Below, one piece after another: positions 5,375 through 29,345 of a stretch of 64,000 bases of DNA. The position numbers and the translations under genes are program-made. Every line of letters starts with the position of its first letter. The stretch's first letter is position 1. This DNA comes from Candidatus Woesebacteria bacterium. GTDB lineage: Bacteria > Patescibacteriota > Microgenomatia > UBA8517. The notes below the pieces were generated by a model. It worked only from the letters and a program-made list of their open reading frames with translations. It made no database searches and was not told the origin of the DNA. The stretch lies in contig CP055307.1 of the NCBI GenBank assembly GCA_013374835.1, forward strand, positions 407,315 to 471,314, given 5' to 3'.

Positions 5375-6182
5375 AGAAGGGGTTTTTATTAGGTGGAAAA
5401 TTCTTAAAGCTAATACAAAATATTCATTCCAAGAGAGTGTTTCCTATACTGCTAATAACTGGGGATCTTTGGCATCGACTCTTATTTTTATGATTACCTT
5501 TTTGATTTTCGTTTCGGCAATTTATGGGAATGTTAGAAGTATTGCTGGTTATTCATATTCTGAGATGCTGGTTTTTGTTTTTGTTGCTCAGATTAATTTT
5601 TATCTTACTTGGACTTTTAGTATCTCTAATGTTGTTAAACTCGGGCAGGGTGTGAAAACCGGAGAGTTGGACCTTTATTTAACAAAACCAGTTCCGCATC
5701 TTTGGTTTGTTACTTTTAGAAAAATTGACTTGGTTTTGCTTTTTTCAAATGCTATCCCCTCTTTAATTCCACTATTTTATTTACTTATTAAAAATTACGA
5801 TTTAGATATAGGAATGGAAAACTTGCTTTTGGGTATCATAATGATTATTCTCGGACAGATATTTTTGCATTGTTTTCAGTTTATTATTCTTCTTGGTGCA
5901 TTTTGGACTGGAGAGGCTAGAGGATTTGAGCTTTTGGCTTATCAGTTGGGTAATTATAACGAACCAATTCCGTTTGAGGGGTATCCAGCAAATTTCAGAA
6001 ACTGGGGGTTTGTGATTTTGCCTGTTATTTTTCATACTGCTTTAACATCTTCTTATCTTTTGGGCAAAACCAGTGATTTAAGCTTGTTTTTACTAGTCTT
6101 GAGTGCGACAATTATTGCGTTATTTGCTAAAAATTTTGTTTGGAAATTGGCTTTAAGACAATATTCCTCAGCATCGTCGTAA
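5355..6182 (+). CDS. ABC-2 family transporter permease (second subunit)
   Basis: 275-aa multi-TM protein translationally coupled to both neighbouring genes. Confidence 0.75.
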   Translation: MNLSEFKEGVFIRWKILKANTKYSFQESVSYTANNWGSLASTLIFMITFLIFVSAIYGNVRSIAGYSYSEMLVFVFVAQINFYLTWTFSISNVVKLGQGVKTGELDLYLTKPVPHLWFVTFRKIDLVLLFSNAIPSLIPLFYLLIKNYDLDIGMENLLLGIIMIILGQIFLHCFQFIILLGAFWTGEARGFELLAYQLGNYNEPIPFEGYPANFRNWGFVILPVIFHTALTSSYLLGKTSDLSLFLLVLSATIIALFAKNFVWKLALRQYSSASS

Positions 6183-6186
6183 AGAT

Positions 6187-7146
6187 ATGAATGTAATTTC
6201 GGTAACCAATCTAACAAAGATATATAAAGTCATAAAAAGGGACAGAGGATTTATAAAGAATCTTTTTATTCCCGGCTATAGAGAGATACTTGCAGTTGAT
6301 AAAATCAGCTTCTCTGTCAAGGCTGGGGAGTCTATTGCCTTTTTGGGACCAAATGGAGCGGGCAAAACTACAACTCTTAAGATGCTTACTGGTTTAATTT
6401 ATCCAACTGAGGGTGATATTTCGGTTTTAGGATTTACACCTACTGACAGGAAGAGAGAATTTTTGAGAAATATCGCACTTGTTATGGGTAATAAGAACAG
6501 CCTTTCTTGGGATTTGACGGCAAGGCAAAATCTTTCGCTTTTTATTAGCATGTATAAAACTACTGAAAAAAATTCATGGAAGGCTATTTATGAGATGGCT
6601 CAAATGCTTGAGGTTGATGATCTTTTTGAGACTCAAATTAGAAAGATGTCCCTAGGGCAGAGATTAAAATTTGAACTTATTGCTGCTATATTTCATAAAC
6701 CCGCGATTCTTTTTCTTGACGAACCTACGATTGGATTGGATATTATTTCAAAAAGAAAAATTAGGCAATTCTTAAGACATGTTAACGAAACCGAAGAAAC
6801 AACGATTATTCTTACCAGTCATGAAATGGCTGATATTGAGAAGGTATGCGACAGAGTCATTGTCATTAATCAAGGAAAAATTGTTTTTGACGGTTCAATG
6901 ATTACGTTAATCAGTAAATACAAAGACAAAAAATATTTTGATGTAATTTTCAAAAAAGAAGTAAACAAAGATAGACTTGAAAAATACGGTAAAATTGTTT
7001 CTCAGCATAATCTTTCGTGTACCTTTGAGGTGCCAAGGGAAAAGCAAGGAGAAGCAATTTCCAAAATTATCTCAAAATTGCCGGTTGAGGATATTAATAT
7101 TAAGCCCACTCCGCTAGATGAGATTATTGAGGATTTATTTAAATGA
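6187..7146 (+). CDS. ABC transporter ATP-binding protein
   Basis: Walker A GPNGAGKTT, signature-like LSLGQR and Walker B LFLDEPT. Confidence 0.9.
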   Translation: MNVISVTNLTKIYKVIKRDRGFIKNLFIPGYREILAVDKISFSVKAGESIAFLGPNGAGKTTTLKMLTGLIYPTEGDISVLGFTPTDRKREFLRNIALVMGNKNSLSWDLTARQNLSLFISMYKTTEKNSWKAIYEMAQMLEVDDLFETQIRKMSLGQRLKFELIAAIFHKPAILFLDEPTIGLDIISKRKIRQFLRHVNETEETTIILTSHEMADIEKVCDRVIVINQGKIVFDGSMITLISKYKDKKYFDVIFKKEVNKDRLEKYGKIVSQHNLSCTFEVPREKQGEAISKIISKLPVEDINIKPTPLDEIIEDLFK

Positions 7147-7519
7147 AAGTAAAAGTAATCATTGGCTCAAATAATCAAGATAAAGTAGAAATTGTTAAAA
7201 TTGTTTAATCTTCATTTGAATGTTGAGATTTGAGGAATAAAAGAATAATTGATGAATTTAATATTTCTTGCTTCGTTTTTTGCTATTTTTTTTATAGTGA
7301 ACTTGGGAAGTTTGGTAACTCTATTAAATATAGAGTTTGTTTTAGGCATTGGATAGAAGCTCTCTTTATTCATCATTTTTAACGCGCCCTGCCTTTTCGG
7401 CTAGCTTTTCGGTTAAATTGTCCGGGCCGGGGCACTGATTTCAAGGACAGTATCGTTTTTATTCAGATCTGCGAATTTGTTTGACATCCACTTAGAGTAT
7501 TATGGCGGAGAGCTGTTTT

Positions 7520-8025: not shown

Positions 8026-8286
8026 TTAGTTTCTCTCTTTGGGAGGCCTTGCTTCACTTACAGTGATTTTTCTTCCTCCGACCTCGGTATCGTTTAATGT
8101 TTCAATCGCCTTTTTAGTATCTTCTTCCTTTTCCATTTCTACAAAAGCAAAACCCTTGCTTCTTCCTGTAAATTTATCAGTAATAATATTGCACGATACA
8201 ACCGCACCGATTTTTGAAAAGATTTCCTGAAGCTCTTCGTTTGTCAAGCTATAAGGAAGTCCTCCGACAAATAATCTTTTTGACAT
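8026..8286 (-). CDS. RRM-type RNA-binding protein
   Basis: RNP-2 motif LFVGGL and RNP-1 motif KGFAFVEM. A strong SD (AAGGTGGTG) lies upstream on the minus strand. Confidence 0.9.
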   Translation of the reverse strand: MSKRLFVGGLPYSLTNEELQEIFSKIGAVVSCNIITDKFTGRSKGFAFVEMEKEEDTKKAIETLNDTEVGGRKITVSEARPPKERN

Positions 8287-8406
8287 CTATAAATCACCAC
8301 CTTTTAACTTTTACTGCTTGAACTGGGTGATTAGAACGCTCAAAAGACTATTTATCTACGAGTGTCAATCTGTCCCAGAAACAGATATAGCATATTATAA
8401 CATAAT

Positions 8407-9045
8407 TTAAGATTTCCAAGCTTTATCAAGAATAGTAATTACTTTTTCATCTGTTACTTGGTCAAAATTATCATAGTAAACAGCTATAGAACCAAGATTT
8501 TTCTCAACAATTGGACAGATAAATTCGTTAATTTTTTGGGAAATTTTTTTGCCTGCCTCTACCGACGAGACGGGTACAGCAAATACAATTTTTTTGGGTT
8601 TAAATGATTTGGCAGCCTTGATGGCCGCTTGTGCTGTTACACCGGTTGCCAGGCCGTCGTCAACCAATATTACTGTTTTTCCTTTAATGTTTAGGGGTTT
8701 TTTTCTGTAAAGAATTTTTCTTCTTTTAAGTTCTTTTTTTTCTTTCTTTATTTCATTTATGAGGTCCTTTTTTTTGAGATTGAGAAGCTTGAGGCTTTTG
8801 ACATCAAAATAGGAGGAGTTGTTTTCCGAAATGGCGCCTAATCCAAACTCTTTATTGTGGGGTGCGCCTATTTTTCTGGTTACCAGAACATTCATTGGTA
8901 TTAGAAGTTTTTTGCTTATAAAATAAGCTATTTCCACTCCTCCTCTTGGAATAGCAAGAATAACCGCGTCTTTTTTGTATTTATATTTAAGCAGAAGATC
9001 TGCCAAGATTTTGCCTGCTTCTTGCCTATTTTTGTATCGAAGCAT
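8407..9045 (-). CDS. phosphoribosyltransferase family protein (type I PRTase) with a K-rich insertion
   Basis: PRPP-binding motif VILVDDGLATGVT. Contains the insertion KKKDLINEIKKEKKELKRRK. Confidence 0.8.
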   Translation of the reverse strand: MLRYKNRQEAGKILADLLLKYKYKKDAVILAIPRGGVEIAYFISKKLLIPMNVLVTRKIGAPHNKEFGLGAISENNSSYFDVKSLKLLNLKKKDLINEIKKEKKELKRRKILYRKKPLNIKGKTVILVDDGLATGVTAQAAIKAAKSFKPKKIVFAVPVSSVEAGKKISQKINEFICPIVEKNLGSIAVYYDNFDQVTDEKVITILDKAWKS

Positions 9046-9120
9046 TTGATTCTGTCTAGTTTATTTTAGACTAATTGGCAAGAATTTAAAAATGCGATAT
9101 ATTTAAATAAAGTAAGCAAA

Positions 9121-10746
9121 ATGAAAGAGAAAATATTTTTAAAAATAAGGTCGCTTTTTTTTGAGCGCGTGCATGATGAAGCAAAATTGCTTCATAAAGG
9201 AATTAAAAAAAATCCTTCTTTTCTTTTTATTTTAGTTGGGATTGCGAGCATTATATGGCTTTTGTTAAGAAGCGCCAGAAAGCCGTCTAGATTATCTTAT
9301 CCTTGCCAGAGGGTAGCTTCTGCTAATTCGATTATTTTTATAAGCTGGGTAGGATCGGTATTTTTAAGCATATTTTCCAGACGCATAAGAAGTAGTGGAA
9401 AGATTTTAGTAAGAGGCGGTTTGATGCTTTTTTCTGTTGCACTTCTTTATATTGCATTGAAGACGGTTTACGTCTATTACAACCATTTTAATTTTGTGCC
9501 CTATGCTGTTGGGCAAACCGGATCCAGAGTTGTTTGGGTAAAACAGGATGGAGCGGCTACGGGCTGGAGTTCGAATTACGCTACACGGGTTAACGGTAAT
9601 ATTGTTGATTCAATGATGGATACGGCAATAACAAGACTTACCGGACAATCGACTGTAAAAGCAGCTTGGTCTCAGCTATTTAAAAATCATAACGGAGGGA
9701 GAGACTATCAGGCGGGAGAGACATTTGCTATTAAGGTAAATTTCAATAATAGTTATGACAGTAATTTGATAAATGCTAATTCTAAAGTTGTTAATGCTTT
9801 ATTAAGACAGTTAATAGTCGAAGTGGGCGTTAAACCAACTGATATAAGTGTTTATGATGTTTCAAGGTCTTTTCCTAGTGGTTTTTCATCTGACATAAGC
9901 AGCAGATTTCCTGGGGTTAGATTAAATACAGATCGTTCTGTGTGTGTTAGTTCTGGTGTTGGTTCGGCCCAGCTTGGGTGTGTATTGCAGAACTCTAAGT
10001 ATTTGATAAATATGCCACTTTTGAAAGTTCATGGAGATGGAGTTAAAGTAAGCATGAGTCTTAAAAATCATTTTGGGAGTTCTAATTCTCCTTCTTCTTT
10101 CCACAGTACTATGTATACAAATTCCAGGACAAGTTCACAGATAGTTATTAATAAGCAACCCGTGATAAAGAACAAGACAATTCTGGTTGTGGGAGATGGT
10201 ATTTATGGAACAAAAAAGGGTAAGGAAACTAGCAACCCCGGTGGGTCTGATGGAATTATTCCTTATCCAAATTCGATATTTGTATCCACAGATCCTATAG
10301 CTCTTGATTCTGTGATGATTGATTATATTGCAAGCCAACCTGATACGAAAATTTCCGGAACTAATTTGAGCTGGGTTCAAACTTTATACCAAAATGCTGC
10401 AGCTGAAGGTTTGGGAACTTTTGATACGAGTGCGGATACCAATTTTGATTTTAAGTATGACAAAATTAATCTAGTTCGCTGCGTGAATGGCAGCTGTAGC
10501 GGAAGCCCTCTCCCTACAAGTGTTTCTACACCTACCCCTACTTCTACTACTACCCCAATTCCTACGTCCGTTAGAAAACCGGGAGATGCGAACAATGACG
10601 GCAAGGTTGACGGACTTGACTATGTAATTTGGGTGGATAATTATGGAATTACGAGTGGGGCTAAGTTTTCTTTAGGTGATTTTAATGGCGATGGCAAGGT
10701 TGACGGACTTGACTATGTAATTTGGGTGGATAATTATGGAAGCTAG
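9121..10746 (+). CDS. membrane-anchored DUF362-like protein with a PT-linker and a C-terminal duplicated dockerin-like module
   Basis: Three N-terminal TM helices, then a central region resembling DUF362 (ILVVGDGIYGTKKG...), then the linker PTSVSTPTPTSTTTPIPTS, then GDANNDGKVDGLDYVIWVDNYG-ITSGAKFSL-GDFNGDGKVDGLDYVIWVDNYG. Confidence 0.7.
   Translation: MKEKIFLKIRSLFFERVHDEAKLLHKGIKKNPSFLFILVGIASIIWLLLRSARKPSRLSYPCQRVASANSIIFISWVGSVFLSIFSRRIRSSGKILVRGGLMLFSVALLYIALKTVYVYYNHFNFVPYAVGQTGSRVVWVKQDGAATGWSSNYATRVNGNIVDSMMDTAITRLTGQSTVKAAWSQLFKNHNGGRDYQAGETFAIKVNFNNSYDSNLINANSKVVNALLRQLIVEVGVKPTDISVYDVSRSFPSGFSSDISSRFPGVRLNTDRSVCVSSGVGSAQLGCVLQNSKYLINMPLLKVHGDGVKVSMSLKNHFGSSNSPSSFHSTMYTNSRTSSQIVINKQPVIKNKTILVVGDGIYGTKKGKETSNPGGSDGIIPYPNSIFVSTDPIALDSVMIDYIASQPDTKISGTNLSWVQTLYQNAAAEGLGTFDTSADTNFDFKYDKINLVRCVNGSCSGSPLPTSVSTPTPTSTTTPIPTSVRKPGDANNDGKVDGLDYVIWVDNYGITSGAKFSLGDFNGDGKVDGLDYVIWVDNYGS
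10582..10746 (+). repeat. dockerin-like duplicated Ca-loop module (gene A 3' end)
   Basis: Two 22-aa segments, each with a DxNxDGxVDxxD loop plus DYVIWVDNYG. Confidence 0.7.
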
Positions 10747-10751
10747 CGTTT

Positions 10752-12263
10752 ATGGCTGGTAAGTTTATTAAAGTTGGAGCTGTAGGTACATTTTTTTTAA
10801 GCATTTTTTTGTTTTTATTGACGAGACCTTTGTATGCAGTGCGCACAGTTCCTACTCAAAGCGAGAGAGGAGGAATTTTTACATATCCTTATAACAATGA
10901 TTGGGCGGGAATGGGTGCCATTTTATTTGGAGCTCTTAGTGATAATTTTTCTAAGATGCCTCCTAATGGTCTTAAGATAAAACACGCACGTTTTCATCAT
11001 TTTAATACTTGGGATGAAACAGGAGGACACACAGGTTTTCCTTATTCAAAACTGATTGCTCTTAATAATTCTGAGATTGCCGCAGGTAGACCTCCGGTAA
11101 TGGTTACCGCGACATATCAAGGTAAGACAAGATATGTTTATTTTCAGTCTGGTTATCCTCGTGGGAATAATTATCAGCTTGCTGACGTGGCAGATGACCG
11201 TTTTATCGATTTTTTTGTTAATGAATATGTCAGAAAAATTGCCTATCCTGGACAAACAACCCTGGGTCCTGCTGATTGGATAGGCTCTGATAATGGAATG
11301 TTTAGCCCTAGCAACTATGGTGTTTTTGATGACAGTGGAAATTTTGTTCGTTTTGGAAGCTCTGGACTTGTTATGAATGATCCTTTTTGGAAAACTCCAG
11401 CTGAGTATTACGAGGATATCGCAACTTTTTTCAGAAAAATCAAAGCAAAATACCCTGATGTAAAGATAATGGTAAATATGGGATCTATGGGAGATTGGAG
11501 TAAATTTGAGCAAGTATATAAAGATATACCTGGAGTAGCTCACGAGGATTTGTTTGACCTTTCTAATGGTCAGGTTACTAATAGGGATATTATGTTTGAT
11601 TGGTGGACACGCTATAAATGGTTTGCTTCTCAAAACAAGGTTGCTCTGCTTCGTGTTAGAGGCATTCCAGATAATAATACGGACATTATTCGTACTGCTT
11701 ATTTGGCATATTTGATGGTGTATGGGGATAACTTTTTTCATAATTTACAGCCGGCTAGTTCTGATACTACTGAGCTTAATCCTATATATGCTCAACAAAT
11801 TAGAAACTCTGTTGGTGATCCGATTGGCGAGTTTAGTAGTAGTCAAGAATCCGGTAGGTCACGGGGGTATCGTTTATATTGGCGTCAGACTACAAAGGGG
11901 ATGATTTATCTTAATTTTACTGGTTCTACAAAGTCTGTAACATTACCTACGGATAAAGTTTATTATAATAGGAATGGCAATCGTGTAACATCTATAACTA
12001 TTTCTGACGGAGTAGGTGATTATGTGACTTTTGAGGGGAATCCTAGACCAACTTCAACTCCTAGTGCGACTTCAAGCCCTGTATCGGGTACTTTGATGGG
12101 CGACGCCAATGGCGATGGCAGGGTCGATGGGCTTGACTATGTAATTTGGGTGGATAATTATGGAATTACGAGTGGGGCTAAGTTTTCTTTAGGTGATTTT
12201 AATGGCGATGGCAGGGTCGATGGGCTTGACTATGTAATTTGGGTGGATAATTATTCTTTATAA
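10752..12263 (+). CDS. secreted protein of unknown function with a C-terminal duplicated dockerin-like module
   Basis: Signal peptide/TM at the N-terminus. Ends GDANGDGRVDGLDYVIWVDNYG-ITSGAKFSL-GDFNGDGRVDGLDYVIWVDNY. Confidence 0.7.
   Translation: MAGKFIKVGAVGTFFLSIFLFLLTRPLYAVRTVPTQSERGGIFTYPYNNDWAGMGAILFGALSDNFSKMPPNGLKIKHARFHHFNTWDETGGHTGFPYSKLIALNNSEIAAGRPPVMVTATYQGKTRYVYFQSGYPRGNNYQLADVADDRFIDFFVNEYVRKIAYPGQTTLGPADWIGSDNGMFSPSNYGVFDDSGNFVRFGSSGLVMNDPFWKTPAEYYEDIATFFRKIKAKYPDVKIMVNMGSMGDWSKFEQVYKDIPGVAHEDLFDLSNGQVTNRDIMFDWWTRYKWFASQNKVALLRVRGIPDNNTDIIRTAYLAYLMVYGDNFFHNLQPASSDTTELNPIYAQQIRNSVGDPIGEFSSSQESGRSRGYRLYWRQTTKGMIYLNFTGSTKSVTLPTDKVYYNRNGNRVTSITISDGVGDYVTFEGNPRPTSTPSATSSPVSGTLMGDANGDGRVDGLDYVIWVDNYGITSGAKFSLGDFNGDGRVDGLDYVIWVDNYSL
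12099..12263 (+). repeat. dockerin-like duplicated module (gene B 3' end; ~80 nt identical to gene A)
   Basis: Shares a long exact nucleotide stretch (gactatgtaatttgggtggataattatggaattacgagtggggctaagttttctttaggtgattttaatggcgatggca) with gene A. Confidence 0.7.
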
Positions 12264-12320
12264 TCTACTTTAATAAAAAAGTTCTTGTAAAAGGATTTTT
12301 AAATAAATAATATTTAAAAT

Positions 12321-13685
12321 ATGTTCAAAAATTTAATTATAAGCTTTTTTGTATTTGGTATATATTGTTTTTTGTTTTTTAAGTTTGCTTTAGCTCAGAG
12401 TTTTCCTACAATTTCTATTGAATCGTATGTTTCAGGATTTGATAGACCTATTAATATTGCAAATCCTAGTGATGGCACAAATAGACTTTTTATTGTGGAG
12501 CAGATCGGTCGAGTAAGAATTATTGAGGATGGTTCGCTTCTTGATGAGCCTTTTTTAGACATTCGTTCAAAAGTTTCTTGTTGTTATGAAAGGGGGCTAC
12601 TTAGTATTGCATTTTCTCCTAATTACAGAAGTAATGGACATTTTTATGTTAATTATACAAATAAAAGCGGAGATACTGTTATTTCGAGATTTACTGTGTT
12701 GTCGACTGATCCTAATAAAGCAGATTCTTCATCTGAGGAGATAATTTTAACTATTGATCAACCTGCGGGGAATCATAATGGTGGACACATGGAGTTTGGG
12801 CCTGATGGGTATTTATATATTGGCATGGGTGATGGGGGTGGAAGCGGGGATCCTGATAATAATGGTCAAAATAAAAATACTCTTCTTGGAAAGATGCTTA
12901 GAATAGATCCGGAAAACGCAATTGGTTCTAATAAGTATGCTATACCTAGTTCAAATCCTTTTTATAATCAAGAAGGTGTTCGTGGTGAAATCTGGGCATA
13001 TGGTCTGAGAAATCCTTGGAGATTTTCTTTCGATTCGAAAACTGGTGATTTATATATAGCTGACGTTGGGCAATTTAAACTTGAGGAGGTAAATTTTCAA
13101 TCAGCTAATTCTACTGGTGGTCAAAATTATGGATGGAGAATAATGGAGGGAACAAGTTGCTTTAATCCCTCTAATTGTAATAAGGAAGGGATTACCTTGC
13201 CAGTTATTGAATACAACCATAGTCAAGGGTGTTCCATAACTGGAGGTGTTGTTTATCGTGGACATGAGTACCCTCAACTGGATGGGATTTATTTTTATGC
13301 AGATTATTGTTCCGGGCGTTTTTGGGGATTGAAAAGATTTGATGATCACTGGCAAAGCACATTATTGTTGACTACTCAGTATCAGCCTACCAGTTTTGGA
13401 AGAGATAAAAATGGGAGGGTTTATTTTACTGATTTGGCAAATAATACAGTTTATGAAATAGTTGGAGATACTGTGCCTGCAAGCGGTATATCAAGTCCTA
13501 CAGCTTCATCGACTATCCCGGGAGATGGAAATAGTGACGGTCGTGTTGATGGGCTTGATTATGTTATTTGGGTGGATAATTATGGGAATCCAAATGTTCA
13601 TGGGGCACATGACGGGGACTTTAATAATGACGAAAAAGTGGACGGACTAGATTATGTTATTTGGGTGGATAATTATACAGTTTAA
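12321..13685 (+). CDS. PQQ-dependent sugar (glucose/sorbosone) dehydrogenase-family beta-propeller protein with a C-terminal dockerin-like module
   Basis: Signal peptide, then GLLSIAFSPNYRSNGHFYVNYTN, DQPAGNHNGGHMEFGPDGYLYIGMGDGG and LGKMLRID, which are characteristic of the GSDH/SGDH family. C-terminus GDGNSDGRVDGLDYVIWVDNYG...GDFNNDEKVDGLDYVIWVDNY. Confidence 0.7.
   Translation: MFKNLIISFFVFGIYCFLFFKFALAQSFPTISIESYVSGFDRPINIANPSDGTNRLFIVEQIGRVRIIEDGSLLDEPFLDIRSKVSCCYERGLLSIAFSPNYRSNGHFYVNYTNKSGDTVISRFTVLSTDPNKADSSSEEIILTIDQPAGNHNGGHMEFGPDGYLYIGMGDGGGSGDPDNNGQNKNTLLGKMLRIDPENAIGSNKYAIPSSNPFYNQEGVRGEIWAYGLRNPWRFSFDSKTGDLYIADVGQFKLEEVNFQSANSTGGQNYGWRIMEGTSCFNPSNCNKEGITLPVIEYNHSQGCSITGGVVYRGHEYPQLDGIYFYADYCSGRFWGLKRFDDHWQSTLLLTTQYQPTSFGRDKNGRVYFTDLANNTVYEIVGDTVPASGISSPTASSTIPGDGNSDGRVDGLDYVIWVDNYGNPNVHGAHDGDFNNDEKVDGLDYVIWVDNYTV
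13521..13685 (+). repeat. dockerin-like duplicated module (gene C)
   Basis: Same two-segment architecture. Shares ~65 nt exactly with the gene D module. Confidence 0.7.
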
Positions 13686-13787
13686 ATTTTCCTGCTAGCA
13701 GGGTTCATTTCTTCATATAATTATTTTATTGTTAAGTAATCAATTCTTGAATCCTAGTGTATTTAGAGGGTATTATTGAACAAGCGA

Positions 13788-15368
13788 ATGCTTAAGAAGA
13801 TTTTTATCGGTTTTTGGGCGATTTTTTGTTTTTTTGTTTTTACTGGTACAGTATATTCGGAGTCTCCAAATAGGTCGTGGGAAGAGGCTTATGATAAGAA
13901 GAATATAAGGCACTCAAGCGGTATGGTTACCGATTCTTCGGCAGATATGCTTAAGCTTCCAAGTGTGCTTTATAGATATCCTGCCAATCCTGATTTTACA
14001 ATAGCGAAAATACAGCCTACTGTTGAATTTGGTATTCCCCAGCTCGTACCAGAATATTTGAGTAGTGGAGGGCCTTATGGTGGTTGGGCAAGGAGTTTTT
14101 ATGGGCCTGATGGAAAGTTTTATTTTACTATTGGCAATCATAATAGATATGCGGCAGATGCCTTTTTGTTTACTTATGATCCGGCTACCAAGACACACAG
14201 CAGAATTTTGAGTACCAAAGAAGTTTCCGGTTGGAGTGATAGCGATTATGGAGATGGCAAACTTCACGGAGATCCCGTTATTTCTCCTAATGGTGATATG
14301 TGGCTTTTGACTTTTTGGGGACCGGAACCGAGTTTATCTGATTTCGGATCTAGCTATTTTGGTGGACATTTAATTTTCTATAATATTTTTAGCAAAAAGT
14401 CTGAATATCTTGGTAGGCCTGTTTCGGATGATAGTTGGCCTGCACATGTATGGGATTGGGAGAGGGAAAGACTTTATGCTGTTGGGGAATGGAGTCGGTA
14501 TTATGGAAAAGAAGGTTATGGAAAATTTATGATTTATGATACAAAAAATAGGAAAGTTGTTTTTGAAGGTTTACCCAAAACAGAAGGTGGAGAAGAAATA
14601 CATTGGTATCATAGGTCAGTGCTTCTTGATAGAGAGACGGGTATTATATATGGAACAGAGTCTTCACCTCCCTATCGTTTTGTGAGTTATAATCCAGCAA
14701 CAGATAAATTTTTGTTTCAAAATGCGAGACTTTCCTCTCCGCTTAGGGCGTGGACAAAAAGAAAAGACCCAAATCGCGCATTTTGGATTTTTGATTATGA
14801 TGGAAATATATATAAATTTTTTCCAGCAGAAGATCGAGTTGAGAAAATCGGGAAAAATTGGATGAATGGTACTTATATTGCGGATATAGAGTTAAGTCCT
14901 TCCGGAAGATATTTGTATTATCCAGTAGCTTCAATAAGTAGTGATTATGGTTTTCCGATAGTTCAATATGATACTCAAAAAAATACTAAGAAGGTTATTG
15001 CGTTTTTATCTGAATACTACCATCGGGAGTATGGGTATGGGATTCAGGGTAGTTACGCTGTTTCATTAAGTCAAGATGGAAGTTCTCTTTTTGTTCAGGT
15101 AAATGGGAGATTTTGTCCGGGTGTACGAGATAAGGCATATGGTCGCCCTGCAATCTTTCATATAAGGATCCCCTCTTCTGAAAGAAGTGAAGATTTTATG
15201 TATGGAGATGGAAATAGTGACGGTCGTGTTGATGGGCTTGATTATGTTATTTGGGTGGATAATTATGGCAAGCTAAACCCAAATGGTCCAGCCGATGGTG
15301 ATTTTAATAAGGACAATAAAGTTGATGGGCTTGATTATGTTATTTGGGTGGATAATTATGGAATTTAA
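13788..15368 (+). CDS. secreted protein (unknown, beta-rich) with a C-terminal dockerin-like module; paralog of the next gene
   Basis: Signal peptide. SPNRSWEEAYDK..., GDGKLHGDPVISPNGDMWLL... The ORF track starts at a TTG at 13776; the ATG at 13788 is preferred. Confidence 0.65.
   Translation: MLKKIFIGFWAIFCFFVFTGTVYSESPNRSWEEAYDKKNIRHSSGMVTDSSADMLKLPSVLYRYPANPDFTIAKIQPTVEFGIPQLVPEYLSSGGPYGGWARSFYGPDGKFYFTIGNHNRYAADAFLFTYDPATKTHSRILSTKEVSGWSDSDYGDGKLHGDPVISPNGDMWLLTFWGPEPSLSDFGSSYFGGHLIFYNIFSKKSEYLGRPVSDDSWPAHVWDWERERLYAVGEWSRYYGKEGYGKFMIYDTKNRKVVFEGLPKTEGGEEIHWYHRSVLLDRETGIIYGTESSPPYRFVSYNPATDKFLFQNARLSSPLRAWTKRKDPNRAFWIFDYDGNIYKFFPAEDRVEKIGKNWMNGTYIADIELSPSGRYLYYPVASISSDYGFPIVQYDTQKNTKKVIAFLSEYYHREYGYGIQGSYAVSLSQDGSSLFVQVNGRFCPGVRDKAYGRPAIFHIRIPSSERSEDFMYGDGNSDGRVDGLDYVIWVDNYGKLNPNGPADGDFNKDNKVDGLDYVIWVDNYGI
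15204..15368 (+). repeat. dockerin-like duplicated module (gene D)
   Basis: GDGNSDGRVDGLDYVIWVDNYG-KLNPNGPAD-GDFNKDNKVDGLDYVIWVDNYG. Confidence 0.7.
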
Positions 15369-15385
15369 GTTCAAGATTAGTTAGG

Positions 15386-17089
15386 ATGTTTATTTTTATG
15401 GGTTTTATTAAAAGAATAATTTTAGAGGTACTCCTATTATTATTTTTATTTTTTATTAATTCAAAGTTTGTTTTTGCTGAAACTCCAAATAGAAGCTGGG
15501 AATTAGCTTATGATAAGCTTAATATAAGAAGACAAAATAAGATGTTTACAGATAATTCTTTAGATTTTTTGAAGGTACCCTCTTATACTTCAAGTCATGG
15601 TGCAAGCATAGCTAAGACACCGCCTATCATACATTTTGGAATTGTACAGCTTACTCCAGAGTATCTTCCTGGAAGCTATCCTCGGGCTGCTTATGGAGGT
15701 TGGGGTGAGGGTGTTACAGGACCTGATGGTAATTATTATTTTGCAATTGGGAACCATGGTAGTTATGCGGATTCGGATGGGCCTGCCGCTAATGCTTATA
15801 TAATAAAATACGATCCTCAAGTAAAGAGACATCAAATAGAGTTGAGTAACAAAGAGGTTTGTGGATGGAGCGATTCTACTTATGGTGATGGAAAACTACA
15901 TGGTGAACCGTATATTGCTTCAAATGGGGACATGTGGCTTCTTGGTTTTTTTGGAGCTTATCCTCGCCGATCTGATTGGGGAACAAAGTATTTTGGTGGT
16001 AGTCTTATATATCACAATATTTTTACAGGTAAATCCGAATGTTTGGGGCGGCCAGTAGAAGATGACGCGTGGCCTATACACACTTGGGATTGGCAGAGGA
16101 ATAGGCTTTATGCGATTGGTGAATGGGGTGTGACAAATGATGGTGGTTTTAGCGGAGATGAGTACCGTTTTAATGGTTATGGAGCTTGGGATTATGGTAA
16201 ACTTTTAGTCTATGATACAAAGAATCGGACCATTATTTATGGTCAGGTTCCCAAAGTAAGTACAACGAGTGAGACTATTAAGTGGTGGAGAAGAGGTCTT
16301 TTGTTAGATAGAGAAACGGGTAAATTATATGGTACATCAACAACTTCGCCATATAATTTTTATAGTTATGATCCTATTTCAAATAAATTTTCTAAGATGA
16401 ACGCTAATCTTTCTGCTCCTCTTATTTCTTGGCCAAAGAGAAAAAATAAAGATGGTTCTTTTTACATTTTTGATAGAAATGGGGGTTTTTATAAATTTTA
16501 TCCAGAGCAAGATTACGTTCAACGAATAGGAAATAATTATGGAAGTACTTATACAGAGACTATGGAATTAAGTCCAGGTGGTCGTTATCTTTATTATATA
16601 CCCGATTCTAATGATGCCGGTGAATTGGGTTTCCCTATTATTCAGTACGATACACAAACGGGACAAAATAAAGTAATAGCGTTCTTGATGGAGTTTTATT
16701 TTTTAAAGTACGGCTATGCTCCTATAGGTTGTTATGGTCTTTCTTTAAGTAGTGATGGTGCCCATCTTTATGCGCATGTAAATGGGCGATTTGGGCCTGA
16801 TAGGAGTACTTATGGCGGTACTAGGCCTTCTATTATTCATGTTGAAATTCCAGCCTCGGAAAGAAGTGGTGATCCTGTACCAAGCGCAACTCCCCATCCT
16901 TCTTTTTCACCTACCCAAAAGCCTGGGGATGCAAATTTAGACGGGCGGGTTGATGGGCTTGATTATGTTATTTGGGTGGATAATTATGGAGTGACTAGCG
17001 GAGTTGATTTTTCTAAGGGTGATTTTAACAACGATTTCAAGGTTGATGGGCTTGATTATGTTATTTGGGTGGATAATTATGGAAATTAA
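15386..17089 (+). CDS. secreted protein, tandem paralog of the 13788..15368 gene, with a C-terminal dockerin-like module
   Basis: The N-terminal region (TPNRSWELAYDK...GDGKLHGEPYIASNGDMWLL) parallels gene D. Ends GDANLDGRVDGLDYVIWVDNYG...GDFNNDFKVDGLDYVIWVDNYG. Confidence 0.65.
   Translation: MFIFMGFIKRIILEVLLLLFLFFINSKFVFAETPNRSWELAYDKLNIRRQNKMFTDNSLDFLKVPSYTSSHGASIAKTPPIIHFGIVQLTPEYLPGSYPRAAYGGWGEGVTGPDGNYYFAIGNHGSYADSDGPAANAYIIKYDPQVKRHQIELSNKEVCGWSDSTYGDGKLHGEPYIASNGDMWLLGFFGAYPRRSDWGTKYFGGSLIYHNIFTGKSECLGRPVEDDAWPIHTWDWQRNRLYAIGEWGVTNDGGFSGDEYRFNGYGAWDYGKLLVYDTKNRTIIYGQVPKVSTTSETIKWWRRGLLLDRETGKLYGTSTTSPYNFYSYDPISNKFSKMNANLSAPLISWPKRKNKDGSFYIFDRNGGFYKFYPEQDYVQRIGNNYGSTYTETMELSPGGRYLYYIPDSNDAGELGFPIIQYDTQTGQNKVIAFLMEFYFLKYGYAPIGCYGLSLSSDGAHLYAHVNGRFGPDRSTYGGTRPSIIHVEIPASERSGDPVPSATPHPSFSPTQKPGDANLDGRVDGLDYVIWVDNYGVTSGVDFSKGDFNNDFKVDGLDYVIWVDNYGN
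16925..17089 (+). repeat. dockerin-like duplicated module (gene E)
   Basis: Two Ca-loop segments. The start codon of the next gene lies inside the terminal GATAATTATGG. Confidence 0.7.
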
Positions 17090-18371
17090 GAAATTGTCAA
17101 ATAAGTTCCTTTTTTTGCTTTTTTTTGCAGCGTTTTATTTTTTTGTTTCTCCAGTTTCGTCTTATGCTATGAATTGTCCAGGTGCTAAAAAAGGTCGTTA
17201 TCATGGTGTTTATGGTGTATGGTCAACGAGTGATTATCAATATTTGGCTGCACATGGCGTGAATTGGATAGTTGTTGAGATTTGGGATTACGATCCTCTT
17301 AAAGGTCTTGAGGCATTAAATGCAGCTGCGGATAATAATATCAAAGTTGCAATTTTAATTATTCAACGAGGTGAATTTGGGTCAAGTTCGTTTACTTTGG
17401 CTGAAGCAGATAAGCGCTTTAAGCGTTTTTTTAATTATGTAATTCCTTCAAACAACAAATATGCTCCCGGAAAAGAGCTTAAATATCATCCTGCGTTAGC
17501 TGCTAATTATGCTTATAGTATGAATCATCAAGTTTTAGATGATTGGGCTAATGGTACGAGTAAAATCAACGTATTAGTAACAGAGCATAGAAAGAAGATA
17601 TATGAATTTAATAAAGAGATGACAATGAGGGATGATGGAACCTGGGTTCCCCTGCTTGTACATTATAGGTCAGTAATTCAAATGGAAAAATATGATAATT
17701 GGCATGGTGATGGCATAAAGAGGGGTTTTGAAGCTGGAGAAGCAGATATTGCGCTTCTTCATGACTATCCGCTTTTTTATACACATGAGGGTGATAACGA
17801 TCCGACAACAGGACCTGCTGAAGAAATGCTTGCTTTTTTTAAGCGTGAGCGTGATTACATTAAAGCTCGTGATTCAAATATAGAGATTAATATGCTTCTT
17901 GGAGCGACTGTGGGCGGAAGTATGCCTACACCTTCTCAATTTGAACAATGGGCCTGTATGCTGGCTCAAGCTGGTGGTGCTGATGCTATTTCGTGGTGGC
18001 CTTGGAGACATGGACAATATTCTTCTCAACTAGGGTCGATGTCAGGAGGTAGCTATATGTATCCAGATCAGCATTGTGCACTTTATAGTATTGCTGCTTC
18101 GTTCATACCTGAATGGCTTAGACAGAATTCACCCAATCCTCCGGGACATTGTCCTGATATTCCCATACCTAGTATAGTTCCATCAGCTACTCCTTCAGTG
18201 AAGTTTGGTGATGCTAATGGAGACTTCCGCGTTGACGGGCTTGATTATGTTATTTGGGTGGATAATTATGGTATGAGCAGTGGCGCTGATTTTTCAAAGG
18301 GGGATTTTAATGGAGACTTCCGCGTTGACGGGCTTGATTATGTAATTTGGGTAGATAATTATGGTACTTGA
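17079..18371 (+). CDS. secreted protein (possibly TIM-barrel hydrolase-like, unknown) with a C-terminal dockerin-like module
   Basis: The start ATG at 17079 is in frame within ORF 17004..18371 and gives the signal peptide MEIKKLSNKFLFLLFFAAFYFFVSPVSSYA. Ends GDANGDFRVDGLDYVIWVDNYG-MSSGADFSK-GDFNGDFRVDGLDYVIWVDNYG. Confidence 0.65.
   Translation: MEIKKLSNKFLFLLFFAAFYFFVSPVSSYAMNCPGAKKGRYHGVYGVWSTSDYQYLAAHGVNWIVVEIWDYDPLKGLEALNAAADNNIKVAILIIQRGEFGSSSFTLAEADKRFKRFFNYVIPSNNKYAPGKELKYHPALAANYAYSMNHQVLDDWANGTSKINVLVTEHRKKIYEFNKEMTMRDDGTWVPLLVHYRSVIQMEKYDNWHGDGIKRGFEAGEADIALLHDYPLFYTHEGDNDPTTGPAEEMLAFFKRERDYIKARDSNIEINMLLGATVGGSMPTPSQFEQWACMLAQAGGADAISWWPWRHGQYSSQLGSMSGGSYMYPDQHCALYSIAASFIPEWLRQNSPNPPGHCPDIPIPSIVPSATPSVKFGDANGDFRVDGLDYVIWVDNYGMSSGADFSKGDFNGDFRVDGLDYVIWVDNYGT
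18207..18371 (+). repeat. dockerin-like duplicated module (gene F)
   Basis: Same architecture; Phe replaces Gly in the loops (GDFRVDG). Confidence 0.7.
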
Positions 18372-18432
18372 TTTTTTTCTTGAAAGTATTTTATTCTTAA
18401 TAAAGTATTTTATTTTTAATTTTATTTAAAGG

Positions 18433-19218
18433 ATGAACAATAAAAGTAATAGTATTAGTTTTAGATCAAAATATTTTTGGGTATTTTCACTAATAGCTTT
18501 TCTTCTTGTTTCGATATTTGTCGCCGCTTACATGGTTCAGAGGTCGCGAGAGACCAGAAAGTCCGCTGCTGCCGGTACGGCGAGTATAACTATCAGCCCT
18601 CAAAGCTCCAATCTTGGTTATGGCCAGAATAATACTTATACCGTAAAGGTTAATTCGTCAAATACAAGTGAGAAGATACTATTTATTAGACTGGATCTTA
18701 CTTTTGATAAAAATTTGGTGAATCTTGTAAGCCTTGAGCCTTTGGGCAGTTTTATAATTCCAGAAAGATCGAATGGTAATAAGCTTGTTTCCAGCGTAGA
18801 AGAGGCTAATACTAGCGGCGCTTTTTATATAGTTTTGACTATGCCTCAGGATAAATTAAGCCAGGCTCCGAGTGGATCTTTTGATGCTGCGAGATTTACG
18901 CTTAAGTCAGTAAAGAATGAAAGCGGCAGCACAAAGGTTAATTTTAATACAAATAATATGCAAGTTGTGAGTAATAATCAAAACGAGAATGATCGTGAAT
19001 TAAATATTCAAGTACAATCGGCAGATATTACCCTTCTTTCAACCGGTTCTACTGCTTCACCAAGCGGATCTGCTAGACCCTCTGTTTCACCTAGCGCATC
19101 ACCTACAGCTACTCCACTTCCTAGCGTTGATCCTAGGGCAGATATTGATCAAAATGGAGTGATAAATCTTCTTGATTACATCATACTTTTGGAAAATTTT
19201 GGTAGAAAAGTTCAGTGA
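18433..19218 (+). CDS. cohesin-like domain protein with an N-terminal TM, an ST-rich linker and a single divergent dockerin-like segment (adaptor-type)
   Basis: The cohesin-like core (ILFIRLDLTFDKNLVNLVSLEPLGSFII ... GAFYIVLTMP ... FDAARFTLKSVKNESGSTKVNF) follows the cohesin pattern (DFxxxYDPxVLE...G.fA.ik..vks..G.s.v.F). C-terminus DIDQNGVINLLDYIILLENFG. Confidence 0.55.
   Translation: MNNKSNSISFRSKYFWVFSLIAFLLVSIFVAAYMVQRSRETRKSAAAGTASITISPQSSNLGYGQNNTYTVKVNSSNTSEKILFIRLDLTFDKNLVNLVSLEPLGSFIIPERSNGNKLVSSVEEANTSGAFYIVLTMPQDKLSQAPSGSFDAARFTLKSVKNESGSTKVNFNTNNMQVVSNNQNENDRELNIQVQSADITLLSTGSTASPSGSARPSVSPSASPTATPLPSVDPRADIDQNGVINLLDYIILLENFGRKVQ
19141..19218 (+). repeat. single divergent dockerin-like segment
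   Basis: DIDQNGVINLLDYIIL: a Ca-loop-like D.D.NG.I...D followed by an aromatic/hydrophobic helix. Confidence 0.45.
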
Positions 19219-19265
19219 GATTGTTGCAAGGGACAATTTCTTGACGACATAAATTTAATTTATAT

Positions 19266-19883
19266 ATGGGTAAAATTAACAAAAATACAGTTCTAGCTCT
19301 TATAACTTTTGTTTTGGTTTTTCTTATTTTGATACTTTCTTATCTTCTTTTGTTGCTTAAGAATGAAGGGAGCTCCGATAATATTAGTGGAAGCAACAAT
19401 TATAAAAAACAGCCAGTTGATATTAATATCCAGGGTAAGTATCTGCCGGTACAGCTTAGCGTAAATAGCGATGAATGGATGCCGGGTGAGATAAATCAAC
19501 TTTATGTATATCTTGCAAACGGCGAAGATCCTCTTTATCCGGATGCTTTTACTTTAAATATTAAATATGATCCTGAGATGGTTAAGCTTGTTAGGATAAA
19601 TAAAGGATATTTGTGGTCTGGTGTAAATGTGATTGAGGAGACTATTGATGAAGATAGAGGAATGGTGGTTGTCAGCCATGGAGCTTCTTTTGATTCGGAG
19701 GTGGTTGGTGGTGTGCAGCTTGTGATTTTGGATTTTGAAGCGATTTCCGGAGCGAGCGGGGAAACGTCCGTAAGCATTGAGAGTGGATCTGAAGCCGGCA
19801 AGGTTGGCTTAGATTATCTTTATCCGATAATTTCGGAGCCTGTGTTTTTTAGCATATCTGAAAATACTGCCCATGAAGACTAA
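19266..19883 (+). CDS. membrane-anchored cohesin-like domain protein
   Basis: N-terminal TM. FTLNIKYDPEMVKLVRINKGYLW ... GVQLVILDFEAISGASGETSVSIESG, which matches cohesin type I DFTLKYDPSVLEIV...GVFAKIKFKVKS..SGTSPVTF. Confidence 0.6.
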   Translation: MGKINKNTVLALITFVLVFLILILSYLLLLLKNEGSSDNISGSNNYKKQPVDINIQGKYLPVQLSVNSDEWMPGEINQLYVYLANGEDPLYPDAFTLNIKYDPEMVKLVRINKGYLWSGVNVIEETIDEDRGMVVVSHGASFDSEVVGGVQLVILDFEAISGASGETSVSIESGSEAGKVGLDYLYPIISEPVFFSISENTAHED

Positions 19884-20646
19884 ATATGCAGTTGCTTTAA
19901 TATCGATTTTAATTCTTGTTGGGGGGATAGTTTTAGGAGCGGTTTTGATAAGAAGCCAGGTGGGTAAAAGGGGAAAGGCGGCTCCTTCTACTTCGTTATC
20001 CATAACAGGCCCTTTGCAGACGATTTATCAGGGGCAGGAGTTTACTTCTACGATTAATATCGCAACGGGAGAAAACTATGTAGCAGGAACCGAGCTTTTA
20101 ATAAGATTTGATCCTAGTGTTCTTGAGGTTATATCAATAACGCCATCAAGTTTTTTGGTGCCTGCGGACACTGTAGGACCTGTTATTGACAACCAGGCGG
20201 GGACAGTTTACTTTGTAATACTTCTTCCACCAGGGGTTGAACCAAAGCAAGGAAGTGGTGAGCTTGCGAGTATGAAGATAAAGGCAAAGTCTCCTGGTAC
20301 GAGCCAGCTTTCGTTTGATAGCGGGGGGACTTTGGCTGTTGCCCTTCATGAGGGAGGGCAGAATGTGATACAAAATCTGTCTCCTACTACTATTACGGTT
20401 GCCAGTAGCACCGGTGGCGGAGATACGAAACCGTCGCCTTCACCTACTCCTGAACCTACGGATACTCCTACACCTAGTCCAACTGCAAGTCCTACTTCGG
20501 CTTTGTCTTCGAGTGCGAGTCCTACCTCTTCTCCTACCATCCCTCCAATATCGGAGATCCCAGATACAGGCGTTTCTTTGCCTACGATTGTAGGTTTTGG
20601 AGTGGGACTTATGCTTATTGTCGGATCTTTTGTTTTGTTTTATTAA
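19873..20646 (+). CDS. cohesin-like domain protein with a PT-rich linker and a C-terminal IPDTG + hydrophobic sorting-signal-like anchor (anchoring scaffoldin-like)
   Basis: N-terminal TM. ELLIRFDPSVLEVISITPSSFL ... GELASMKIKAKSPGTSQLSF (cohesin pattern). Then the linker TKPSPSPTPEPTDTPTPSPTASPTS, IPDTG and a TM with no basic tail. Confidence 0.6.
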   Translation: MKTKYAVALISILILVGGIVLGAVLIRSQVGKRGKAAPSTSLSITGPLQTIYQGQEFTSTINIATGENYVAGTELLIRFDPSVLEVISITPSSFLVPADTVGPVIDNQAGTVYFVILLPPGVEPKQGSGELASMKIKAKSPGTSQLSFDSGGTLAVALHEGGQNVIQNLSPTTITVASSTGGGDTKPSPSPTPEPTDTPTPSPTASPTSALSSSASPTSSPTIPPISEIPDTGVSLPTIVGFGVGLMLIVGSFVLFY

Positions 20647-20658
20647 AATGCGAATTGG

Positions 20659-20877
20659 ATGTTAAGAAATAAAGTAATTATTGTACAAAGTATATTAATT
20701 TTGCTTCTTCTAATTGTTGGTTGGTTTTTTTGGGGACGAGTACAAAAAGCCAATATAGCTTTAAAGGATGTCCAAAAGCTGGAGGATGAGAAGCAGAGAT
20801 GTTCTGATTTTTTGAGCGAAGGGAGCGGAGAATTCGGGGAATTTCAGTATTGCAACAGGCTTCTTCAAAATTTTTAA
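20659..20877 (+). CDS. small membrane protein, hypothetical
   Basis: 72 aa with one N-terminal TM helix. Confidence 0.35.
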   Translation: MLRNKVIIVQSILILLLLIVGWFFWGRVQKANIALKDVQKLEDEKQRCSDFLSEGSGEFGEFQYCNRLLQNF

Positions 20878-20895
20878 GATACTGTATTTTTTTAT

Positions 20896-21522
20896 TTAGA
20901 AAAGGGCTGTCTGTTGAGTTGTTTCTCCCTCGTCTGGATAGCTGAAATCAACATTGATTTGACGTGGTGTGTTCCATTTATCTTTGAAATGAAGAGTATT
21001 CTTTTTTAAGCCAAAGTCGTATATTTCTTTTGTAATGATTACATCCATTTCACAGTATTTTTGAAGTTTTTTAAGGCTTTTGGGATCTCCTTTTTTCCAG
21101 TAGAGAACTGCGTTTGTGCCTATATCGTTTTTTCCTTTTTTTAGTGTTTCTTTGGCTATATCGTCAAGCCTTATCCTTTTGCCGAATGATTCTTTAATCT
21201 TTTCGAGGATGTCGAAATGATTGAACTTAAGAAGCGGTATTTTGGTATAAGGTTGAAGGACGGCGATGTCAAATTTTATACTGTTAAATCCTATTATTCT
21301 GTCTGCTGTTTGGAATATTGGCCATATCTGATCAAGAGAATCGTGCCAGAAACTAACAAGCCTTCCTTCTAGCTCGTTGTAGTTGCTGTCAATAATTCTT
21401 TCGTATATTGATACAATTGAAACTCCGAGAAGCGAGGGGTTTTCCTCTTTAACTTCGTTAAAAAGTTTTTGGGTTTCCAGATCGAATATAACTTCCTTTT
21501 TCGTTATCATGTAAATAATCAT
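20896..21522 (-). CDS. RNase H-like 3'-5' exonuclease (PolB-exonuclease-like, COG3298 type)
   Basis: FDLETQ (Exo I), IGFNSIKFDIAVL (Exo II) and YCEMDVIITKEIY (Exo III YxxxD). Confidence 0.65.
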   Translation of the reverse strand: MIIYMITKKEVIFDLETQKLFNEVKEENPSLLGVSIVSIYERIIDSNYNELEGRLVSFWHDSLDQIWPIFQTADRIIGFNSIKFDIAVLQPYTKIPLLKFNHFDILEKIKESFGKRIRLDDIAKETLKKGKNDIGTNAVLYWKKGDPKSLKKLQKYCEMDVIITKEIYDFGLKKNTLHFKDKWNTPRQINVDFSYPDEGETTQQTALF

Positions 21523-21552
21523 TATATTTATGAGGTTTGGTGTAAATCAAGT

Positions 21553-23846: not shown

Positions 23847-23870
23847 GGCTTATATTATATAATATGAAAG

Positions 23871-25650: not shown

Positions 25651-25703
25651 TGTCTCAGTATAATCTTTTTGTTTTGGGTTTGAAAGATTTATGTTAGGAT
25701 TAA

Positions 25704-26832: not shown

Positions 26833-26877
26833 CATGTAGCACTCATTATATTAGACTGCTAACATTGAATTAAGATT

Positions 26878-29301: not shown

Positions 29302-29345
29302 TTTTTGAGTTTGGTATTTTACGGTGATAAAATATAGAGTAATCT

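Follow-up and report, generated by a model that had tools for sequence, protein, structure and literature searches.

Why do six consecutive genes end in similar DNA, and what do their shared ends encode? The genes (g1 to g6) lie in a 64,000-nt window, the whole stretch of DNA that was analyzed (contig CP055307.1, positions 407,315 to 471,314), from a Woesebacteria-like bacterium within the Candidate Phyla Radiation (CPR, or Patescibacteria) with a genome of ~0.9 Mb (901,682 bp). Judged from sequence, the 3′-terminal repeats encode two-segment, type-I-like dockerins on six secreted proteins, and cohesin-type genes (g7 to g9) follow them. We consider it likely that this is a display locus whose dockerin DNA is kept alike by amino acid conservation, codon bias, and short-tract recombination that acts mainly within genes. 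The strongest homogenization is between the two 66-nt halves of the repeat within each gene, a point absent from the initial annotation of this DNA, which had described concerted evolution of dockerin modules across the six genes.

Two-segment dockerin modules and their shared core

The terminal module comprises 54 residues in two segments (162 nt per gene), GDxNxDGxVDGLDYVIWVDNYG and GDFNxDxxVDGLDYVIWVDNYx, joined by a 9-residue linker. All six tails agree at 36 of the 58 aligned positions. The sequence signature of dockerins is a pair of tandem EF-hand-like Ca2+ loops (PMC12484212, PMC5429695). We took a type I dockerin to have two ~22-residue segments, each with the loop D-x-[ND]-x-[DN]-G-x-[IV]-[DN]-x-x-D, and all six tails have this arrangement. 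The motif D-x-N-x-D-G-x-V-D-x-x-D occurs twice in every tail, 31 residues apart, and each half places Asp or Asn at EF-hand-like loop positions 1, 3, 5, 9, and 12. A signal peptide or transmembrane helix is present at the N terminus of all six proteins.

Database comparisons point the same way, at borderline scores. The Pfam model PF00404 (Dockerin_1) matches five of the six tails at 17.8 to 24.2 bits, with g1 and g2 above the gathering cut-off of 22.9. A profile built from the six tails retrieves almost exclusively dockerin chains from the PDB, albeit weakly (E ~0.04), and both module loops align to the loops of the CelS dockerin. The paired loop motifs, the Pfam matches, and the cohesin genes downstream together uphold the original description of the modules as dockerins.

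At the DNA level, a degenerate 35-nt core (GGNCTTGANTATGTNATTTGGGTGGATAATTATGG) has 12 plus-strand matches between 10612 and 18364, two per gene, nine of them exact and three with one to three mismatches. This is the number of recurrences counted initially; the rest of the 64-kb window contains no match, nor does any of 100 shuffles. The region also holds a 157-nt direct-repeat family of six copies, which are 69 to 90% identical to the g1 copy and spaced 1282 to 1721 nt apart. The longest exact tract, 82 nt, is shared by g1 and g2 and includes the linker ITSGAKFSL, much as reported (~80 nt); the 65-nt tract shared by g3 and g4 has the same sequence as the one first described. Near-identical tracts had been claimed for the 3′ ends of all six genes, and this holds for tracts of this kind but not for whole modules, which are 66 to 86% identical pairwise. 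Nor are the proteins otherwise unrelated, as had been stated: g4 and g5 are paralogs with 56% amino acid identity.

Exchange within and between genes

We find an ortholog of g5, 76% identical, on a 266-kb Joint Genome Institute (JGI) contig (L001), which is 99.7% identical to Candidatus Woesebacteria bacterium UBA1430 (L002). This sister contig is syntenic with the window through h1, h3, h4, h5, h6, h7, h8, and h9, numbered as their counterparts; a counterpart of g2 is absent. In a 39-nt core comparison, the encoded amino acids are invariant in the window, and the sister genome has Tyr→Phe in three halves (h3a, h3b, and h6b). Differences in this core amount to 1.27 between same-gene halves, 2.90 (window) and 6.25 (sister) between halves of different genes, and 4.60 between orthologous halves. 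Same-gene halves are more alike than different-gene halves (permutation, p = 0.0002).

Synonymous sites allow a comparison with the sister genome. The synonymous difference between same-gene halves is 0.21 to 0.49 in 9 of 11 genes, against 0.53 to 0.75 between orthologous halves. Repeats within a gene are thus closer than orthologous repeats, which is the pattern of concerted evolution, although the duplication that produced the halves predates the species split. The two halves of the same window gene share exact tracts of 27 to 54 nt. Furthermore, the sister genome has gene-specific variants of its own that are present in both halves, namely, Tyr→Phe in h3 (GACTTCGTA), ATC/GAC/TAC in h4, CTC in h5, and GGT in h6. 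In a third relative (L013), the halves of one gene (k4) differ at 7 of 60 sites, and Leu→Gln and Val→Leu appear in each half of another gene (k2).

Between genes, exchange is clear for three pairs: g1/g2, g3/g4, and g4/g5. A GENECONV-like permutation of polymorphic sites is globally significant for g1/g2 (p < 0.0002) and g3/g4 (p = 0.005), and the initial proposal of gene conversion or recombination between modules is borne out there; all other module pairs are globally nonsignificant. By synonymous difference, intragenomic modules are closer than orthologous ones only for g3/g4 (0.27), g4/g5, and g1/g2 (0.39 to 0.48), and not in the sister genome (0.75). In g4/g5, the synonymous difference is 0.31 to 0.33 in the modules and 0.65 in the bodies. 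Exchange is also indicated by the module of g4, which is not of the type found in its ortholog h4. The comparison with the sister genome supports concerted evolution for the halves of a gene, and between genes for these three pairs only.

We propose that three causes may combine. Extreme amino acid conservation would be the first, presumably since six tails must fit the same cohesin(s). AT-biased codon usage would be the second, and alone predicts ~7 of 13 identical core codons per pair. The third would be short-tract homologous recombination (gene conversion or unequal exchange), which is shown statistically and whose enzymology is presumed. Recombination would act mainly between the two 66-nt segments of a single gene, which are separated by 93 nt, leaving the dockerin internally symmetric, with occasional exchange between adjacent genes (82 nt in g1/g2 and 65 nt in g3/g4).

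Recent domain shuffling offers another account: every gene would have received its dockerin not long ago from one and the same donor, and the shared tracts would be remnants of these acquisitions. Several features could be read this way. The g4 module is of a different type from that of its ortholog h4, g2 was apparently gained or lost together with its dockerin, and the dockerin subtype is widespread and portable, with 10,460 representative proteins at E ≤ 1e-3. However, the sister genome has a dockerin in the corresponding place in five of the six genes; the fusions must therefore be older than a split for which synonymous divergence in this block has reached saturation. Acquisition at a uniform age cannot yield 0 differences in 82 nt beside 11 in the adjoining 33 nt, as in g1/g2, and a likeness between halves that exceeds the likeness between orthologs needs repeated exchange. 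We regard shuffling as an improbable explanation.

Purifying selection on the dockerin peptide, combined with AT-biased codon usage, might also produce the DNA identity with no recombination at all. The many invariant residues (36 of 58) fit this idea, as do the preferred codons GAT, TAT, AAT, and ATT that dominate the core and the synonymous differences near saturation for most module pairs. Yet codon bias alone gives 7.1 of 13 identical core codons per pair, whereas the observed mean is 10.27, above all 5000 simulations (maximum, 8.65), and the nonpreferred codons GTG and GGG are fixed in the core. Given the amino acids and the codon usage of these genes, identity at every codon has P = 3e-9 for the g1/g2 tract and ~1e-6 for the g3/g4 tract. 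The mosaic divergence of g1/g2 and the closeness of same-gene halves relative to orthologous halves also speak against selection and bias as a sufficient cause, which we judge very unlikely. The DNA likeness exceeds what selection on the peptide and codon bias produce, and the g1/g2 and g3/g4 tracts are recombinant mosaics.

Several observations weigh against our reading of a dockerin display locus homogenized by recombination. Of the five tails with a Pfam match, three (g3, g4, and g6) score under the curated cut-off, and the g5 tail has no Dockerin_1 match at E ≤ 0.01. An AlphaFold2 model of the dockerin from the six-sequence alignment is too unreliable to indicate a fold [predicted local distance difference test (pLDDT), 63.4; predicted template modeling score, 0.26; short strands predicted], and the AlphaFold model of g9 is too poor for a fold check (pLDDT, 52). 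From one gene to another, homogenization is weak on the whole and is not seen in the sister genome. Concerted evolution of the full set of six genes, as first claimed, finds little support: modules differ at synonymous sites by 0.55 on average in the window and by 0.75, which is saturated, in the sister, and informative module sites group 134 times by ortholog, 36 times by genome, and 15 times crossed. The two genomes also differ within this block in G+C content at third codon positions (GC3), and this shift could mimic some of the by-genome sites. Because it could inflate quartet site counts, we argue mainly from the synonymous-difference comparison and the within-genome permutation. Finally, the halves show little likeness in g3/h3 and in k1 and k3 of the third relative; homogenization is therefore patchy.

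The repeats had also been flagged as a hotspot for deletions or assembly collapse. That they are a site of rearrangement and assembly trouble is supported by the presence or absence of g2, by a gap in a related genome, and by breaks and a 93-nt loss in k-mer assemblies. In the UBA1430 metagenome-assembled genome (MAG), 37 N take the place of 99 nt inside the h5 dockerin, at its internal repeat (L002 11599-11635). Logan k = 31 assemblies of the same strain as the window (SRR6825876, SRR7008310, and SRR6825879; L017-L020) are 99.95 to 100% identical to it downstream (17055-30646). Each begins at 17055, within the core of the second half of g5, and each lacks 93 nt of the g6 dockerin, being joined in a 36-nt tract common to the halves so that a single-segment dockerin is encoded. 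This 93-nt loss is either a k-mer collapse or a real in-frame deletion variant.

Such breaks, together with exact repeats of 27 to 82 nt that are longer than common k-mer sizes, raise the question of whether the identical tracts or the position of g2 in the window arose from repeat-induced misjoins or from consensus homogenization during assembly or polishing. We hold this to be highly improbable. The independent JGI assembly, from a different species, has the same architecture, two-segment modules, the 11-nt overlap of g5 and g6, and its own variants in both halves. In addition, the 82-nt tract is flanked on both sides by gene-specific variants (g1, GGCAAGGTTGACGGA; g2, GGCAGGGTCGATGGG), the opposite of what a chimeric join would leave. 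On these two grounds, the window assembly looks coherent. More generally, repeats of 27 to 82 nt break or collapse k = 31 assemblies, so that MAGs may contain dockerin genes that are cut short, fused, or left with a single segment.

One copy of the repeat also carries a start codon. The ATG at 17079 sits within GATAATTATGG of the last repeat of g5, preceded by GGTG, and is in frame with the open reading frame (ORF) that ends at 18371, overlapping g5 by 11 nt (stop, 17087-17089). It opens a plausible signal peptide (MEIKKLSNKF...). The same 11-nt overlap is present in h5/h6, where an in-frame TAA stands six codons upstream of the homologous ATG of h6 and there is no alternative start downstream. 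The proposed g6 start is therefore conserved in the sister genome; TTG 17094 is a possible alternative in the window. The accompanying claim, that the repeat doubles as a translation-initiation context, was overstated: only 1 of 10 exact GATAATTATGG copies opens an ORF of more than 22 codons, and there is no clear Shine-Dalgarno motif at the genes of this region.

The g1/g2 form of the core fits a sigma-70-like TTGACT-N17-AATTAT pattern (9 of 12) at 10616-10644, 10709-10737, 12133-12161, and 12226-12254, and one of these copies, at 10709, stops 15 nt short of the g2 start. Promoter-like matches are as frequent in this region as expected from shuffles (40 versus 40.0), and terminator counts are likewise at expectation. 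Conservation of the core for a function of the nucleotides themselves (internal promoter, ribosome-loading or translational-coupling element, or recombination site), to which these four copies and the one that supplies the g6 ATG might point, is the least credible alternative, since promoter-like matches are no commoner than in shuffles, nine exact GATAATTATGG copies open no long ORF, and synonymous positions of the core vary freely in the sister genome (GTC/GTT, GAC, AAC, TAC, and ATC).

A divergent block and a gene gained or lost

Table 1. Genes, block, and exact tracts at the dockerin locus (window coordinates).
Feature	Position	Strand	Description
g1	9121-10746	+	Membrane-anchored or secreted DUF362 protein (Pfam DUF362, 47 bits; Dockerin_1, 23.7 bits); C-terminal dockerin 10582-10743
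g2	10752-12263	+	Secreted, function unassigned; dockerin 12099-12260 (Dockerin_1, 24.2 bits); no L001 ortholog; paralog P0098 elsewhere in genome
g3	12321-13685	+	Secreted glucose/sorbosone dehydrogenase-like beta-propeller (Pfam GSDH, 149 bits; Dockerin_1, 17.8 bits); dockerin 13521-13682
g4	13776-15368	+	Secreted, function unassigned; g5 paralog; dockerin 15204-15365 (Dockerin_1, 21.9 bits)
g5	15386-17089	+	Secreted, function unassigned; g4 paralog; dockerin 16925-17086; final 11 nt overlap g6
g6	17079-18371	+	Secreted, function unassigned; dockerin 18207-18368 (Dockerin_1, 18.5 bits)
g7	18433-19218	+	N-terminal transmembrane helix, cohesin-like domain, Ser/Pro linker, one divergent dockerin-like segment DIDQNGVINLLDYIILLENFG
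g8	19266-19883	+	N-terminal transmembrane helix and cohesin domain (Pfam Cohesin, 24.5 bits; cut-off, 24.1)
g9	19873-20646	+	Cohesin (Pfam, 35.8 bits), Ser/Thr/Pro linker, IPDTG, hydrophobic tail; putative sortase-anchored scaffold
Sortase gene	56628-57194	+	Pfam Sortase, 74.3 bits; TLYTC motif; candidate for anchoring g9
Hyperdivergent block versus sister genome	9800-18355 (versus L001 5900-12965)		68 to 86% nucleotide identity; flanks 91 to 97%
g1/g2 exact tract, 82 nt	10615-10696 = 12132-12213	+	Covers linker ITSGAKFSL; read as conversion tract between adjacent genes
g3/g4 exact tract, 65 nt	13521-13585 = 15204-15268	+	Read as conversion tract between adjacent genes

Together, the enzyme genes make up an 8.5-kb island whose synonymous divergence from the sister genome is 5 to 10 times that of its flanks (Table 1). 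Synonymous divergence (dS) is 0.11 to 0.41 in the flanking genes, including the cohesin genes, and 0.99 to 1.93 in g1, g3, g4, g5, and g6. The left edge (~9800) lies inside the g1 ORF, where nucleotide identity falls from ~93 to ~78%; the 5′ part of g1 has a dS of 0.34, and its 3′ part has a synonymous difference of 0.76. The right edge (~18355) falls in the last ~15 nt of the g6 dockerin, where identity returns to 94 to 100%. GC3 in the block is 0.23 to 0.30 in the window and 0.35 to 0.41 in the sister genome, differing by 0.08 to 0.16, and is equal in the flanks. These sharp edges point to recombinational replacement of the block. Since they lie inside an ORF, we favor replacement over relaxed selection. 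With the last dockerin as its boundary, the island suggests that surface enzymes are quickly turned over or imported while the genomes are otherwise nearly identical.

Synteny with the sister genome ends upstream of window position 7500 (~7400). Three genes of the sister contig (L001 359-3627), a Peptidase_M23 gene among them, have no counterpart in the window.

The sister gene h1 is a composite. It has a g1-like body up to "...VNGSC", followed by a g2-like linker (SGTL), dockerin, ending (YSL and stop), and downstream spacer. The nonsynonymous difference (pN) of its dockerin is 0.029 to g2 and 0.096 to g1. Because h1 joins a g1-like body to a g2-like tail and spacer, the g2 gene was apparently acquired or lost at breakpoints adjoining dockerins. 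The piece missing from the sister genome is approximately one repeat period (1517 nt).

The g2 protein and its paralog P0098 are identical across most of a central stretch of ~170 residues, with two 50-column blocks at 100%, and are 44 to 64% identical in amino acids elsewhere, N terminus included. This mosaic suggests that gene conversion acted between the enzyme bodies of distant paralogs. A similar pattern is seen in the third relative, where two genes of the g2 family on L013, k2 (5786-7282) and k4 (8936-10426), match at 99% in their first 100 nt and at ~70% in the 100 nt that follow, a conversion-like mosaic in a cluster that contains polysaccharide and pectate lyases as well.

It is conceivable, though we think it rather unlikely, that the dockerin repeats serve as portable homology anchors by which whole enzyme genes are swapped, inserted, and deleted as cassettes, both within a genome and between diverged lineages. 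If true, this would jointly explain the presence or absence of g2 with breakpoints adjoining dockerins, the mosaic of g2 and P0098, and the saturated synonymous divergence of the 8.5-kb block, with its right edge in the last dockerin and flanks at a dS of 0.1 to 0.4.

A genome scan found one syntenic relative, from the same population as the sister contig, and distant homologs in Latescibacterota and Bryobacterales that lack dockerins and synteny. A metagenome scan with the g6 body found nothing beyond the sister contig. Neither scan yielded an outgroup that would polarize the g2 indel. The third relative (L013/L014) has a second dockerin cluster with a polysaccharide lyase, two genes of the g2 family, and a Pel9A-like lyase. 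In L016 (3-161 and 204-1826), from another relative, two neighboring genes have a derived dockerin variant in common, with the Ca-ligand Asp of loop position 9 replaced by Thr (KVTG), as well as the tract SDADFNLDGKVTG; in both, the first half closes with DKYG and the second with DNY(G/A). This is likeness between genes at matching positions, not symmetry inside one gene.

Some gene starts and intergenic features also deserve mention. Alignment with the sister ortholog h4 indicates that the true start of g4 is probably ATG 13788. The deposited g4 protein (P0006) begins ~49 residues further in, so that the signal peptide would be lost, and the deposited g5 protein (P0001, 563 amino acids) begins at the second Met (15398). 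A short GC-rich hairpin, CCTGC-TAG-GCAGG, lies between g3 and g4 (13690-13703). It is conserved in the sister genome, where both stem and loop are changed (L001 ~8280-8300, CCTGCC-GAC-GGGCAGG). The hairpin may be a terminator or attenuator within the cluster. An Rfam scan of the window found one transfer RNA only.

Cohesins, cargo, and proposed surface display

Cohesin genes stand directly downstream of the dockerin genes, and both g8 and g9 exceed the gathering threshold of the Pfam model PF00963 (Cohesin). The best PDB sequence matches of g9 are CipA cohesins (E ~0.03), and g7 is related to g9 (hhalign probability, 89.7%; E = 1.9e-6). The C terminus of g9 (20560-20646) carries IPDTG with a hydrophobic tail after it; ~36 kb away is a gene for a sortase. 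The tail and the sortase together suggest that the g9 scaffold is covalently anchored to the cell wall. Of the three single-cohesin proteins, the one bearing IPDTG would presumably hold the enzymes on the wall.

The cargo consists of a DUF362 protein, a GSDH-like protein, and four proteins with no family or PDB match; PDB sequence searches and NCBIfam gave no functional assignment for g2, for g6, or for the bodies of g4 and g5. We detected one cohesin region in each of g7, g8, and g9 and no match to a carbohydrate-binding module (CBM), and these proteins lack the multi-cohesin scaffoldin of a cellulosome sensu stricto. With a single cohesin per protein, no CBM, and no recognized glycoside hydrolase among the cargo, the locus is best described, from its gene content, as a putative non-cellulosomal cohesin-dockerin surface-display system. 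Non-cellulosomal systems of this kind are reportedly widespread in bacteria and archaea.

The modules resemble type I cellulosomal dockerins such as that of Clostridium thermocellum CelS (Cel48S; PDB 1daq/2mte) in being C-terminal modules of ~55 to 60 residues on secreted enzymes. They share with them two tandem EF-hand-like Ca2+ loops (positions 1, 3, 5, 9, and 12), an internal two-fold symmetry of sequence that is almost perfect, a consensus typical of the species that many enzymes have in common, and partner cohesins in the same genome. They differ in the segment after the loop, which is LDYVIWVDNYG here and a Leu/Lys-rich helix in clostridial dockerins, in their borderline scores, and in their host, a CPR bacterium with a ~0.9-Mb genome. 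Here, moreover, the symmetry is seen at synonymous sites, which implies DNA exchange and not only protein-level selection. As in the cellulosome, dockerin enzymes cluster together with genes for cohesins, one of which encodes a protein with a cell-wall sorting signal. In contrast to the cellulosome, with its multi-cohesin scaffoldin, CBM, and glycoside hydrolases, this locus has single cohesins, no CBM match, and no recognized glycoside hydrolase cargo.

The pattern of exchange likewise has precedents. Bacterial concerted evolution, as in tufA/tufB and the repeat domains of surface proteins, also shows paralogous repeats that are closer than orthologs, sharp-edged mosaic tracts, and substrates for deletion and duplication. 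Unlike conversion of the tufA/tufB type, the main partners here are two 66-nt segments 93 nt apart in one ORF, with tracts of 27 to 82 nt. Within the CPR, Southlakia epibionticum encodes an essential dockerin-domain envelope protein, SEML1_0315, speculated to target glycans (PMC10633639). That is a single protein for which no cohesin partner or cluster is described, whereas the present locus has nine genes, six with dockerins and three with cohesins. Our literature search found no paper that pairs dockerins with concerted evolution, and its sole match for dockerin and gene conversion, on iChIP chromatin isolation, was unrelated. Cohesin-dockerin systems and concerted evolution of repeats are both known kinds, and this locus appears to be a further member of each.

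Repeats kept alike by recombination are in themselves fairly ordinary for repeated modules; the exchange that maintains symmetry within genes and the divergent island stand out somewhat. The DNA-level evidence indicates that the two-fold symmetry of dockerins, the basis of their dual binding mode, can be kept by recombination between segments as well as by selection on the protein. In this CPR bacterium, nine genes of a ~0.9-Mb genome are given over to what we read as cohesin-dockerin display, with cargo mostly of unassigned function. The locus thus offers a concrete target for the study of how epibiont-like cells handle surfaces or hosts.

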